A stretch of 64,000 bases of DNA from Escherichia coli (lineage in GTDB: Bacteria; Pseudomonadota; Gammaproteobacteria; Enterobacterales; Enterobacteriaceae). A program made the position numbers. Shown one piece after another: positions 51,001 through 57,000 of the stretch. The stretch lies in the NCBI RefSeq assembly GCF_003790525.1, contig NZ_CP033635.1. One strand, 5' to 3'. Positions within the stretch are counted from its first letter, which is position 1; the number at the start of each line of letters is the position of its first letter.

Positions 51001-54000
51001 TGGTCGTTACCGGTACGGCGTTAAGCGGGGAAGTGAAGGTAGGCGATTCAATCTGGCTGACTGGTGTAAATAAACCGATGCGCGTGCGTGCGCTACATGC
51101 GCAAAATCAGCCAACAGAAACTGCCCATGCCGGGCAGCGTATCGCGCTTAACATCGCGGGTGATGCGGAAAAAGAGCAGATTAACCGTGGCGACTGGCTG
51201 CTTGCCGATGTGCCGCCGGAGCCGTTCACACGGGTGATTGTCGAGCTTCAAACCCATACACCGCTGACCCAGTGGCAGCCGCTGCATATTCACCACGCCG
51301 CCAGCCACGTTACGGGACGCGTTTCGCTGCTGGAAGATAACCTTGCCGAGCTGGTGTTCGACACGCCGCTGTGGCTGGCGGATAACGATCGCATAGTGCT
51401 GCGCGATATCTCGGCCCGCAACACGCTGGCGGGGGCGCGTGTGGTGATGCTTAACCCGCCGCGTCGCGGTAAGCGTAAGCCGGAATATCTGCAATGGCTG
51501 GCGTCTCTTGCACGGGCGCAGAGCGATGCCGATGCGTTATCTGTTCATCTGGAACGCGGCGCGGTTAACCTTGCTGATTTCGCCTGGGCGCGCCAGCTCA
51601 ACGGCGAAGGGATGCGCGAACTGCTGCAACAGCCTGGCTATATTCAGGCTGGTTATAGCTTGTTGAATGCGCCGGTTGCCGCCCGCTGGCAGCGGAAAAT
51701 TCTCGACACATTAGCGACTTATCATGAGCAACATCGCGATGAACCTGGTCCTGGGCGCGAACGTCTGCGACGTATGGCGTTGCCAATGGAAGATGAAGCG
51801 CTGGTACTGTTGCTGATTGAAAAGATGCGCGAAAGCGGCGACATCCTCAGTCATCACGGCTGGCTGCATCTGCCGGATCACAAAGCGGGCTTCAGCGAAG
51901 AGCAGCAGGCCATCTGGCAAAAAGCAGAGCCACTGTTTGGTGACGAACCGTGGTGGGTGCGAGACCTGGCAAAAGAGACGGGAACCGACGAGCAGGCAAT
52001 GCGCCTGACTCTACGCCAGGCGGCGCAGCAGGGGATAATTACCGCGATCGTTAAAGATCGTTATTACCGTAACGATCGGATTGTCGAGTTTGCTAATATG
52101 ATCCGCGATCTCGATCAGGAGTGTGGTTCAACCTGCGCGGCGGATTTCCGCGATCGCTTAGGCGTAGGCCGAAAGCTGGCAATTCAGATTCTGGAATATT
52201 TTGACCGCATTGGCTTTACGCGTCGTCGTGGAAATGATCATTTATTACGCGACGCATTATTATTTCCGGAAAAATAAGGAAATGATTAATTCATAATAAA
52301 TATGAATTAATACAAAATTTCTTATTAATGTTAAGAAGGCACGTTATTTGATGAATGTAACGTGCTTTTTATTAAAAATATTTTAATAAACGGTAATGTT
52401 GATCATATTTTCAAATGAAAATTCTCAGTAAGCTGCCCGCCCTTTTTTACACTTTCAGGAGTGTGTTATGGCAGCTTCAACCTTTTTTATTCCTTCCGTG
52501 AATGTTATTGGTGCTGATTCATTGAATGATGCAATGAATATGATGGCAGATTATGGATTTACCCGTACCTTAATTGTCACCGACAATATGTTAACGAAAT
52601 TGGGTATGGCGGGTGATGTGCAAAAAGCACTGGAAGAACGCAATATTTTTAGCGTTATTTATGATGGCACCCAACCTAACCCCACCACGGAAAACGTCGC
52701 CGCAGGTTTGAAATTACTTAAAGAAAATAATTGCGATAGCGTGATCTCCTTAGGCGGTGGTTCTCCGCACGACTGCGCAAAAGGTATTGCGCTGGTGGCA
52801 GCCAATGGCGGCGATATTCGCGATTACGAAGGCGTTGACCGCTCTGCAAAACCGCAGCTGCCGATGATCGCCATCAATACCACGGCGGGTACGGCCTCTG
52901 AAATGACCCGTTTCTGCATCATCACTGACGAAGCGCGTCATATCAAAATGGCGATTGTTGATAAACATGTAACTCCGTTGCTTTCTGTCAATGACTCATC
53001 TCTGATGGTCGGTATGCCGAAGTCACTGACCGCCGCAACGGGTATGGATGCCTTAACGCACGCTATCGAAGCGTATGTTTCTATTGCCGCCACGCCGATC
53101 ACTGACGCTTGCGCCCTGAAAGCCGTGACCATGATTGCCGAAAACCTGCCGTTAGCCGTTGAAGATGGCAGTAATGCGAAAGCGCGTGAAGCAATGGCTT
53201 ATGCCCAGTTCCTCGCCGGTATGGCGTTCAATAATGCTTCTCTGGGTTATGTTCATGCGATGGCGCACCAGCTGGGCGGTTTCTACAACCTGCCACACGG
53301 TGTATGTAATGCTGTTCTGCTGCCACACGTTCAGGTATTCAATAGCAAAGTCGCTGCAGCACGTCTGCGTGACTGTGCCGCTGCAATGGGCGTGAACGTG
53401 ACTGGTAAAAACGACGCGGAAGGTGCTGAAGCCTGCATTAACGCCATCCGTGAACTGGCGAAGAAAGTGGATATCCCGGCAGGCCTGCGTGACCTGAACG
53501 TGAAAGAAGAAGATTTCGCGGTACTGGCCACCAATGCCCTGAAAGATGCGTGTGGGTTTACTAACCCGATTCAGGCAACTCACGAAGAGATTGTGGCAAT
53601 TTATCGCGCTGCGATGTAATCATCATTCCCACAATGGCTGGCGAGTTGTCAGCCGCTTTTTCAACTATCTCAAAACTTGCTTTTTTTGAGATAGTTTCTC
53701 TTTCCTGCTATATACTATCTCAATATTGCGCTTTTTTGAGATAAGCACATGGCTATCAAATCACCTCCCGGACTTATTCCTTTATCACACTTATCGGGTG
53801 AGGAACTCCTGGCCCACCTGCGCTTTAACCGGGTTACCGATGAAAAAGGACGTTATCTGCCTTTTGATGAGTTGCAGTACCGCATCAAAAAAGGAGAAAA
53901 CGTCGATGTGGCGTGGACGCTTACCCGTCTGGCGCGCAACGCGGCGATCCAACGAATTAATTATTGCAATGAAGCGGGTGAACAGGCCGGATTCAACATT

Positions 54001-57000
54001 ACCCCGGTGATTGCAGAAGCGTGCGAGCTTGTCGACAAACGTGCTACCGCGCTGGCGCTGAAAGATCAGACTGAACGGTTACGCGGGGCCGGAGCCGAGT
54101 TAAGCCAGTTACGCCTGGAAGAGCCGATCACCAGCTCCCAGCTGGAGGGTGCGAATACTACAACGCTGGTGGCGAGAAAAATGCTGGAAACAGGGCGGTC
54201 GCCACGCACTGAAGACGAGCATATGATTGCGGGAAATGCCCGGCTGATGGCGGAAATTCCGCACTTACTCGCAGAACCGCTGACACCTGCGCTTATTCGC
54301 CAGTTACATGCCATTGGTATGGGTGGAATCAATGACGCGAAATATCGTCCGGGAGAATTTCGTGAAACAGATGATGTTGTGATCGCCGACTATGATGGCA
54401 ATATAGTGCATCAACCGCCCGCTGCGGCATTGTTACCGGAACGGCTGGAAAAAGTTTGCCAGTGGTTAAACAGCCATGAAGGGTATATTCATCCGTTGGT
54501 CCGTGCCTGCATTCTGCATTTTATGCTGGCCCATGAACATCCGTTTCGGGATGGCAACGGGCGCACCAGTCGGGCGCTGTTTTACTGGTATATGCTGAAA
54601 TCGGGCTACGATGTCTTTAAATATATTTCCATCAGCCGTTTGCTTCATGCTGCACCGGTCAAATATGCCGCCAGCTACCAGTACACTGAATCAGATGGTA
54701 TGGATCTGACTTATTTCCTTGAATATCAGGCGGGTGTCATTAAACGTGCTCTGCAAAACTGGCAGCAGCATATCGATGAAATTACACAACGAAGCGCAAA
54801 ACTCGATAGTGTGCTGTTTAGCTCTGGTGTGCTTAAACGCCTGAATCCGCGCCAGGTAACGCTCCTGAATGTGATGCTCGCCAATCCGGGGAAAGAGTAC
54901 ACAGTTGCTGAAATTAGCGCGAGCCTGGGCGTCTCTGATAATACGGCTCGAGCTGATTTACGGACAATTGTTAAAGAAGGGTTTGCGCAAGAGAAGAAAA
55001 TTAATGACCAGCAAGCCGTGTACTTCGCGCATTATCCGCTGTAACCCTTGCCCGTAAATTCGTGATAGCCGTCGTAAAGCTGTTATCGACTGGCGAAGAT
55101 TTCGCCAGTCACGTCTACCCTTGTTATACCTCACACCGCAAGGAGACGATCATGACCAATAATCCCCCTTCAGCACAGATTAAGCCCGGCGAGTATGGTT
55201 TCCCCCTCAAGTTAAAAGCCCGCTACGACAACTTTATTGGCGGCGAATGGGTAGCCCCTGCCGACGGCGAGTATTACCAGAACCTGACGCCGGTGACCGG
55301 ACAGCTGCTGTGCGAAGTGGCGTCTTCGGGCAAACGAGACATCGATCTGGCGCTGGATGCTGCGCACAAAGTGAAAGATAAATGGGCGCATACTTCGGTG
55401 CAGGATCGCGCGGCGATTCTGTTTAAGATTGCCGATCGGATGGAGCAGAACCTCGAACTGTTAGCGACCGCTGAAACCTGGGATAACGGCAAACCCATTC
55501 GCGAAACCAGTGCTGCTGATGTGCCGCTGGCGATTGACCATTTTCGCTATTTTGCCTCGTGTATTCGGGCGCAGGAAGGCGGTATTAGTGAAGTGGATAG
55601 CGAAACTGTGGCTTATCACTTCCACGAACCGTTAGGCGTGGTGGGGCAGATTATTCCGTGGAACTTCCCGCTGCTGATGGCGAGCTGGAAAATGGCTCCC
55701 GCGCTGGCGGCGGGCAACTGTGTGGTGCTGAAACCCGCACGTCTTACCCCGCTCTCAGTACTGCTGCTAATGGAAATCGTCGGTGATTTACTGCCGCCGG
55801 GCGTGGTGAACGTGGTCAACGGTGCGGGCGGAGAAATTGGCGAATATCTGGCGACCTCGAAACGCATCGCCAAAGTGGCGTTTACCGGCTCAACGGAAGT
55901 GGGCCAACAAATTATGCAGTACGCCACGCAAAACATTATTCCGGTGACGCTGGAGCTGGGCGGCAAATCCCCAAATATCTTCTTTGCTGATGTGATGGAT
56001 GAAGAAGATGCCTTTTTCGATAAAGCGCTGGAAGGCTTTGCACTGTTTGCCTTTAACCAGGGCGAAGTTTGCACCTGTCCAAGCCGTGCTTTAGTGCAGG
56101 AGTCTATCTACGAACGCTTTATGGAACGCGCCATCCGCCGTGTCGAAAGCATTCGCAGCGGTAACCCGCTCGACAGCGTGACGCAAATGGGGGCGCAGGT
56201 TTCGCACGGGCAATTGGAAACCATCCTCAACTACATTGATATTGGTAAAAAAGAGGGCGCAGACGTGCTCACCGGCGGGCGGCGCAAGCTGCTGGAAGGC
56301 GAACTGAAAGACGGCTACTACCTCGAACCGACGATTCTGTTTGGTCAGAATAATATGCGCGTGTTCCAGGAAGAAATTTTTGGTCCGGTGCTGGCGGTGA
56401 CCACCTTCAAAACGATGGAAGAAGCGCTGGAGCTGGCGAACGACACGCAATATGGCCTGGGCGCGGGTGTCTGGAGCCGCAACGGTAATCTGGCCTATAA
56501 GATGGGGCGCGGCATTCAGGCCGGGCGCGTGTGGACCAACTGTTATCACGCTTACCCGGCACATGCGGCGTTTGGCGGCTACAAACAGTCGGGCATCGGA
56601 CGCGAAACCCATAAGATGATGCTTGAGCATTACCAGCAAACCAAGTGCCTGCTGGTGAGCTACTCGGATAAACCGTTGGGGCTGTTCTGATATAAGAAGC
56701 TGGTCGCATTGGGTATTCATTGCCTGATGCGACGCTTACGCGTCTTATCATGCCTACGGGGACCTGACCGTAGGCCGGATAAGGCGTACACGCCGCATCC
56801 GGCATAAACAAAGCGCACGTTGTTACAATTTACGTTTTAAATCTACGTGCGCAATAACCCAGACTACGCCAACAGAAGTGCGTTTCTGGGGCGTGTTTTG
56901 CCAGGAGTTTAATCTCGCGTTTCGATGGTGAGCGGGCGAACCAGGCCATAAATCACCATTGGCGTTCCGAGGCCAATCAGCAATAAACGGTAGATAATTG

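Follow-up and report, generated by a model that had tools for sequence, protein, structure and literature searches.

How is a potentially toxic enzyme held in check when it is encoded by a single gene? This question is raised by a gene for a Fic-domain protein, here called fic, that lies between yiaY and aldB in a 64,000-nucleotide stretch of Escherichia coli DNA (NCBI RefSeq assembly GCF_003790525.1, contig NZ_CP033635.1; hereafter the window). Fic enzymes with a C-terminal winged helix-turn-helix (Fic-wHTH) are widespread, have been flagged as antiphage 'SoFic' in defence surveys and are toxic when overexpressed. SoFic was reportedly recognised as a single-gene antiphage system by Millman and colleagues in 2022. 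To our knowledge, CccR is the sole Fic-wHTH enzyme with an experimentally mapped specific operator. We consider it likely that the locus is a self-contained single-gene module in which a dimer of the Fic protein represses its own promoter through two palindromic operators, O1 and O2.

The possibility that the protein's own DNA-binding domain regulates its gene came from an earlier reading of the sequence (the original prediction). It gained support here from the conservation of the candidate operators, from their covariation with the predicted recognition helix and, by analogy, from the precedents of CccR and SoFic. Autoregulation is well supported in silico and by experiments on homologous proteins; for the fic protein itself we infer it. 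The original prediction had rated such autoregulation as more novel than it is; the principle is not new for Fic-wHTH proteins and has already been published (PMC9755527; bioRxiv 10.64898/2026.07.09.737422). New are the defined operators in their dual N14 form, what appears to be a specificity code, and a long subfamily, as yet uncharacterised, that has an N-terminal domain of ~95 amino acids (aa). The locus would offer a precise operator in E. coli itself, along with natural fic-plus and fic-minus strains to compare.

Candidate operators in front of fic

The upstream region had been described as an array of alternating 9-bp repeats. Their positions were right within 1 nt, but the repeats form two 9 + N14 + 9 palindromes rather than four independent sites (Table 1). 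The sequence ACTATCTCA occurs at 53664-72 and 53714-22, and TGAGATAGT is exact at 53687-95, while the fourth half-site, TGAGATAaG at 53737-45, has two mismatches at its outer end. The four half-sites are spaced 23, 27, and 23 bp from start to start, which sets O1 and O2 off from each other by 50 bp. All three exact copies of ACTATCTCA in the 64 kb are located in the fic upstream region. We searched the window, rather than the whole genome, for the palindrome pattern with up to three mismatches and found two matches against 0.21 expected; these were O1 and O2, with no further sites. Both palindromes are identical across three E. coli fic alleles that differ elsewhere.

Table 1 Features of the fic locus, with positions in the window.
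Feature	Coordinates	Strand	Remarks
yiaY intrinsic terminator	53635..53655	+	Terminator scan; GGCTGGC...GCCAGCC stem followed by a T run; retained in K-12
Candidate operator O1, ACTATCTCA-N14-TGAGATAGT	53664..53695	.	Perfect arms reach 13 nt (53663-75 and 53684-96)
Segment of 1368 bp missing from K-12	53672..55039	.	K-12 junction CAACTATCTC|TGTAACCC, with 1 nt ambiguity
Putative -35-like hexamer TTGAGA	53686..53691	+	Inside the right arm of O1; read from the sequence; TTGAG invariant in homologues
Putative extended -10, TGcTATATACT	53706..53716	+	Read from the sequence; overlaps the left arm of O2
Candidate operator O2, ACTATCTCA-N14-TGAGATAaG	53714..53745	.	Ends 3 nt before the ATG; right arm covers a weak Shine-Dalgarno-like GAGA
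fic gene, 431 aa, long-form class II Fic-winged-helix (stop codon counted in the end coordinate)	53749..55044	+	
N-terminal domain, aa 1-98	53749..54042	+	Helices 17-26, 39-45, 52-66, and 86-98; beta strands 68-73 and 79-82
Inhibitory motif S129-S-Q-L-E133-G134, form (S/T)xxxE(G/N)	54133..54150	+	Invariant in 34 homologues
Fic active-site motif H264-PFRDGNGR272-TS-R275, intact	54538..54573	+	Fits HxFx(D/E)GNGRxxR; invariant in 34 homologues
C-terminal winged helix-turn-helix, aa 361-427	54829..55029	+	AlphaFold model, Foldseek, weak Pfam HTH matches

We compared the upstream regions of homologous genes at 79 loci from species-representative genomes and eight from assemblies. The two-palindrome layout was found upstream of homologues with 37-95% protein identity in E. 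albertii, Pseudescherichia, Salmonella, Pantoea, Marinomonas, Glaciecola, Halopseudomonas, several Pseudomonas, and a gammaproteobacterial metagenome-assembled genome. In Pseudescherichia, for example, the region reads CACTATCTCA-N14-TGAGATAGA...AACTATCTCA-N14-TGAGATAGTTTTATG. Photorhabdus, Klebsiella, and others have only the proximal palindrome, at the position of O2. The proximal palindrome ends 0-8 nt (mostly 3-6) before the ATG in homologues. The genes next to fic differed in every genus examined and included nitrate and ANTAR genes, a region resembling an integrative and conjugative element (ICE), toxin-antitoxin genes, and fumarase, among others. The palindrome layout was kept among homologues of 31-95% identity in unrelated genomic contexts.

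We also searched the region from -110 to +3 for inverted repeats with perfect arms and a spacer of 4-34 nt. The longest repeat averaged 9.0 nt over 77 loci, and arms of at least 8 nt were present at 66% of these loci; the corresponding shares were 9% for dinucleotide shuffles and 11% for control segments 600 nt upstream. In an alignment of ten upstream sequences, from proteins of 37-95% identity, the invariant positions were CTCA and TTGAG in O1, TA between the palindromes, and ATC.CAA and TTGAG.T in O2. The 14-nt spacers of both palindromes were not conserved.

More distant homologues have the same architecture with other half-sites, including CTACTAAT, CTGCTAAT, TCCTAAT, TATCAAT, and CTACCAAT. 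The core of the half-site varied with the residue aligned to N398 (codon 54940-54942), which is located in the first turn (S-D-N-T-A-R) of the predicted recognition helix (aa 397-409, 54937-54975). Asparagine was paired with CTCAA in 22 of 24 cases, glutamine with [ACG]CTAA in 26 of 29, alanine or glycine with ATCAA in 8 of 11, and aspartate with ACCAA in all five. The mutual information between residue and core was 1.50 bits, a value reached by 0 of 5000 permutations (maximum 0.54), although the classes were set after inspection and relatedness through shared descent inflates the statistic. When an operator accompanies its gene and varies along with the helix that reads DNA, this is the signature of a cis-encoded autoregulator. 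These comparisons support the view that O1 and O2 are operators for the Fic protein's own DNA-binding domain. If true, the residue-to-base rule would predict operators for hundreds of family members.

A putative promoter overlaps both palindromes (Table 1). Its -10 element could be TATATA at 53709-14, 17 nt after TTGAGA, or TATACT at 53711-16, 19 nt after it. T53711 and A53712 are invariant in the ten upstream regions and T53716 is nearly so, as expected for positions -12, -11, and -7. Transcription is predicted to start at about 53720-53725, within the left arm of O2. The yiaY terminator is outside the Fic module and insulates it from upstream transcription. Two small open reading frames (ORFs) of 36 and 47 aa, at 53634-53744 (+) and 53546-53689 (+), overlap the terminator and operator region. 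They are probably spurious, because the sequence there is not conserved across genera apart from the operator cores.

The long-form Fic protein and its relatives

The original prediction of a 431-aa Fic protein with an intact active-site motif, an internal [ST]xxxE[GN] motif, and a C-terminal HTH-like domain agreed with our analysis at each point. The ATG start is backed by an N-terminus, M-x-I-K-x-P-P, that is conserved in homologues, and residues 177-281 matched the Pfam Fic family (PF02661, E = 1.7e-19). The invariance of the two motifs (Table 1) was observed in an alignment of 34 sequences with identity down to 41%. In the AlphaFold2 model (predicted local distance difference test, pLDDT, 87.7; predicted template-modelling score, pTM, 0.84), the inhibitory motif falls within helix 124-132 and its C-terminal cap, 131 residues ahead of H264. 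By its sequence, the protein is a class II Fic, in which the inhibitory helix is intramolecular.

The C-terminus of the model consists of helices 367-378, 386-393, and 397-409 and a beta hairpin at 413-427, which together form a winged helix. Foldseek searches against PDB aligned 355-368 columns at 17-20% identity with CbFic2 (8CIL), SoFic (3ZCN, 3EQX), Dde_2494 (4RGL), and CccR (7XUX). The alignments to 3ZCN, 8CIL, and 7XUX extended across the winged helix, and the Fic fold also matched FICD. The homologue P0088 had clearer HTH matches in the same region (PF21248, HTH_DeoR). On the modelled fold, the protein has the C-terminal wHTH architecture of SoFic-like Fic-wHTH proteins (IPR048770 / PF21248). 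The PADLOC SoFic defence profile (PDLC03963) matched residues 96-428 with E = 1.2e-43, starting at profile position 30, and helices 101-121 aligned with the positions of the SoFic N-terminal helix.

What precedes this match is a domain of ~95 aa that is private to the long-form subfamily and without known fold. The long-form clade comprises proteins of 430-470 aa in at least 1358 clusters at 50% identity and is distinct from SoFic. The best matches to a profile of the N-terminal domain (P0121-P0268) were mostly short, at 100-250 aa. Most likely these derive from 430-470-aa proteins cut off at contig ends, although the domain may also exist in a stand-alone form among them.

Of the related proteins, CccR from Yersinia pseudotuberculosis is an experimentally established autorepressor. 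This dimeric class II Fic-HTH protein lowers the activity of its own promoter ~3-fold and requires dimerisation to do so; it binds AGATAATCAT-N26-ATGATAATCT near -35 and -10 with recognition helices 70 Å apart (PMC9755527). It is also an effector secreted by the type VI secretion system (T6SS), enters other cells in an FhuA-dependent manner, and AMPylates FtsZ (PMC9755527). The fic protein resembles CccR in combining a class II Fic domain with a C-terminal HTH, in having no separate antitoxin, and in an inverted repeat on its own putative promoter (Foldseek E about 1e-10, 358 columns, 17-19% identity). However, CccR has 380 aa and no ~95-aa N-terminal domain, and its operator is one palindrome with 10-bp arms and a 26-bp spacer instead of two with 9-bp arms (ACTATCTCA) and a 14-bp spacer. 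In contrast to CccR, nothing ties the fic gene here to secretion, and no T6SS genes adjoin the locus.

SoFic (Shewanella oneidensis SO_4266) is likewise a stand-alone class II Fic with a winged helix, with about 18% identity to the fic protein in the structural alignment. Dimeric SoFic binds specifically to the 100-bp stretch ahead of its own start codon, and it AMPylates EF-Tu (bioRxiv 10.64898/2026.07.09.737422). EcSofic from E. coli H397 forms dimers, is toxic, and depends on its C-terminal domain, and a 47-aa downstream antitoxin, AS1, has been reported for it (PMC12249575). These short forms have ~360-372 aa and begin with a dimerisation helix, whereas the fic protein has an extra N-terminal domain. 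The EF-Tu target and antiphage activity have been demonstrated for the short form only.

CbFic2 from Coxiella burnetii, a class II Fic with a DeoR-like wHTH, was the best Foldseek match (8CIL, E = 3e-12, 368 columns). Its HTH mediates DNA binding, and this binding stimulates the enzyme's activity (PMC10628234). The work on CbFic2 used random DNA and defined no specific operator; it dealt with the protein as a host-directed effector whose substrate is histone H3. CbFic2 also has an N-terminal DUF4172, whereas Pfam finds none in the fic protein.

Class I Fic toxin-antitoxin systems (VbhT/VbhA, FicT/FicA) and Doc/Phd share with the fic module the Fic/Fido fold, a potentially toxic enzyme, and autoregulated expression, which is proposed here. 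In those systems a separate antitoxin inhibits the toxin and binds the operator; here a single polypeptide contains both the inhibitory helix and the DNA-binding domain. We found no separate class I antitoxin gene at the locus, as yiaY and aldB are also adjacent in K-12 and there is no conserved small ORF. A downstream antitoxin like AS1, for which the fic locus has no counterpart, was rejected because the 108-bp gap between fic and aldB is common to K-12 and the downstream gaps of homologues are 62-85 bp. Since the neighbours differ in every genus and no small ORF is conserved, there is no conserved partner gene, in agreement with the original prediction.

Proposed autoregulation and competing explanations

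In the proposed mechanism, fic encodes a class II AMP-transferase, possibly also a de-AMPylase, that would be restrained by an inhibitory glutamate of its own chain, E133. Dimers are most likely the acting form of the protein, with one dimer per palindrome. Its two winged helices, ~75-80 Å apart, would each read one ACTATCTCA half-site of a 32-bp palindrome. The half-site centres are 23 bp (~78 Å) apart, a distance that by analogy appears compatible with dimers of the SoFic/CccR type. Occupancy of O1 would cover the -35, and O2 would cover the -10, the start site in its left arm, and the ribosome-binding region in its right arm. The occupied operators would then repress fic transcription, so that the level of a potentially toxic enzyme stays low and buffered. 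That the fic protein dimerises, binds DNA, acts as a repressor, and has enzymatic activity, as well as where its promoter lies, are all points that we infer.

Several observations weigh against autoregulation through O1 and O2. The support for the fic protein itself is computational, and the experiments stem from relatives. Its Pfam HTH matches are weak (residues 361-414; HTH_DeoR 0.003), and the NCBIfam SoFic equivalog (NF046030) gave 40.2 bits against a curated cutoff of 550. With the score this far under the cutoff, functional transfer from SoFic is loose, and the identity of the protein as SoFic was rejected. A few homologues, among them those of Xenorhabdus (L088) and Rahnella (L087), have degenerate operators, and the late choice of the residue-operator classes belongs here as well. 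A sigma-70 scanner, which in the 17-nt register accepts only hexamers with T at position 6, called no promoter in the fic upstream spacer, so that the -35, -10, and start-site assignments were made by eye, backed by column conservation. The last point of this kind is that the palindromes can be drawn as RNA: a terminator scanner flagged O1 as terminator-like, and RNA folding gave -14.1 kcal/mol (z = -6) for O1 and -7.3 kcal/mol for O2.

These folds could mean that the inverted repeats are RNA hairpins, O1 being a second terminator or insulator after yiaY and O2 a hairpin in the 5' untranslated region (5'-UTR) that hides the ribosome-binding site. The two-sided complementary changes ACTGTCTCA/TGAGACAGT and TCATCTCA/TGAGATGA suit an RNA stem too, but they do not separate it from a symmetric dimer site, as both predict them. 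We nevertheless regard hairpins as improbable. The sequence of the half-sites, beyond their pairing, is kept at 39-45% protein identity, the loops vary while the spacing is fixed, and the half-site core tracks a residue of the recognition helix. Moreover, the upstream gene is divergent in Pseudescherichia and Xenorhabdus, so that no terminator is needed there, and differences between the arms are uncompensated in Pantoea (ACTATCGCA/TGAGGTAGT) and Salmonella Nigeria (ACTACATCA/TGAGGTAGT). With the putative -10, transcription would begin within the left arm of O2, and what remains of the 5'-UTR is unstructured. An Rfam scan of 53400-55300 with E up to 1 detected no RNA family.

Another explanation grants the winged helix its palindromes but gives repression a secondary place: binding would serve mainly as an allosteric or localisation switch, or as a sensor of foreign DNA or copy number. 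DNA-induced dimerisation would then toggle between AMPylation and de-AMPylation, as proposed for CbFic2. This draws on the findings that DNA stimulates CbFic2 and drives its dimerisation (PMC10628234), that AMPylation by SoFic is dimerisation-dependent (bioRxiv 10.64898/2026.07.09.737422), and that the toxicity of EcSofic requires the C-terminal domain (PMC12249575), together with the match of the PADLOC SoFic profile to the fic protein. However, in every lineage the sites coincide with the promoter and ribosome-binding region of the gene itself, as autoregulation predicts and as pure allostery would not need, and the palindrome pattern is nowhere else in the window. We therefore consider a switch of this kind unlikely as the main role, although it is compatible with autoregulation.

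It is scarcely credible that some unrelated host regulator binds the repeats, or that the repeats derive, as scars or terminal repeats, from a mobile element that brought fic in. In favour of such an origin, fic is an insertion/deletion polymorphism in E. coli, and some homologues are in mobile contexts, such as the ICE-like region in Salmonella and, in serovar Nigeria, a neighbourhood with resolvase, ParA, and primase. Yet both palindromes are on one side of fic and do not flank it, synteny in E. albertii and the half-site and fic stop codon left in K-12 indicate a deletion, and homologues are rare on plasmids (19 of 72,556 records). A motif that follows Fic across phyla and changes with the recognition helix is beyond what a host factor can explain. 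We rejected a mobile-element origin of the repeats on the strength of the K-12 junction, the E. albertii synteny, and the rarity on plasmids.

Autoregulation by the Fic dimer can also be extended to a wider scheme for the subfamily, which we think rather unlikely in full. Long-form proteins would be one-gene toxin-plus-repressor modules with an operator specificity largely set by one recognition-helix residue; operator occupancy would also gate the enzyme, and the N-terminal domain would act as a sensor. In such a scheme, loss or titration of DNA binding, for example upon phage infection or a change in DNA state, would lead to derepression and to activation of the AMP-transferase.

Distribution of fic and its loss in K-12

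The region is 100% identical to that of E. coli SMS-3-5 (NC_010498.1), in which the ORF is annotated as 'Fic family protein' (WP_000985736.1) and yiaY as L-threonine dehydrogenase. A literature search on yiaY, aldB, and Fic at this locus found no publication. The flanks were matched in 5357 of 5426 complete E. coli genomes, and 1572 of the 5426 (29%) had at least 80% coverage of the 1901-bp query that spans the gene and were counted as fic carriers. S88, O157:H7, and SMS-3-5 have fic, while K-12, C600, and JM109 lack it; we take these three carriers to belong to phylogroups B2, E, and F and these three non-carriers to A. In E. albertii, fic is present at 95% identity directly upstream of an aldB-like ORF.

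The original prediction held that the position is empty in K-12. A comparison of the spacers confirmed that the gene is absent, but this is a clean 1368-bp deletion rather than an ancestral empty site. The yiaY-aldB spacer of K-12 has 164 bp and reads ...GCTTTTTCAACTATCTC|TGTAACCCTTGCCCG..., and it retains the yiaY terminator, one operator half-site, and the final bases and stop codon of fic. Together with the synteny in E. albertii, these remnants indicate that fic is ancestral at the site and that K-12 has a deletion, not that other strains have an insertion. On this sequence evidence, the strain-variable 1.4-kb segment beside aldB is an ancestral gene lost in the K-12 lineage.

We also observed a second fic-less allele in E. 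coli THO-008 (L090, NZ_AP022536.1, 555-625), which we compared with window positions 53660-53700 and 55030-55050. In it the entire O1 palindrome remains, although the right arm (TGAGAGAGT) has decayed, and TTAGTTATCTC|TGTAGTCC comes next. Its junction is TTATCTC|TGTAG, and the right-hand junction TATCTC|TGTA is common to K-12. Judging from these junctions, the K-12 allele could derive from the THO-008 type by slippage between two TATCTC direct repeats, with a loss of 37 bp.

By the gene content of the window, fic is set among housekeeping genes rather than within a defence island. Housekeeping genes flank the copies in E. coli, Pseudescherichia, Pantoea, and Rahnella. The homologue in one Salmonella enterica (L083) has mobile-like surroundings with AcaB, DUF3158, and DUF3577, and that of S. 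enterica serovar Nigeria (L089) has resolvase, ParA, and Toprim primase nearby. In Xenorhabdus khoisanae (L088), a second, shorter Fic-HTH gene (5206-6216, minus strand; 336 aa, Fic and HTH_11/HTH_DeoR) is located 0.8 kb downstream of the long-form homologue, whose proximal operator is degenerate (TTTATCTCA...TTTTGCGGTG). The homologue in Photorhabdus tasmaniensis (L084, 845-2536) adjoins ParE/PhdYeFM-like and HicA/HicB toxin-antitoxin pairs, and these surroundings may be a small island of toxin-type genes.

On the other side of fic, the mechanical ORF of aldB starts at GTG 55062 (542 aa; 55062-56690), and the RefSeq start is ATG 55152 (512 aa). The aldB promoter presumably lies in the 108 bp that separate fic from aldB. 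Since these 108 bp are common to K-12, any aldB regulatory sites further upstream sit in different sequence in fic-plus and fic-minus strains.

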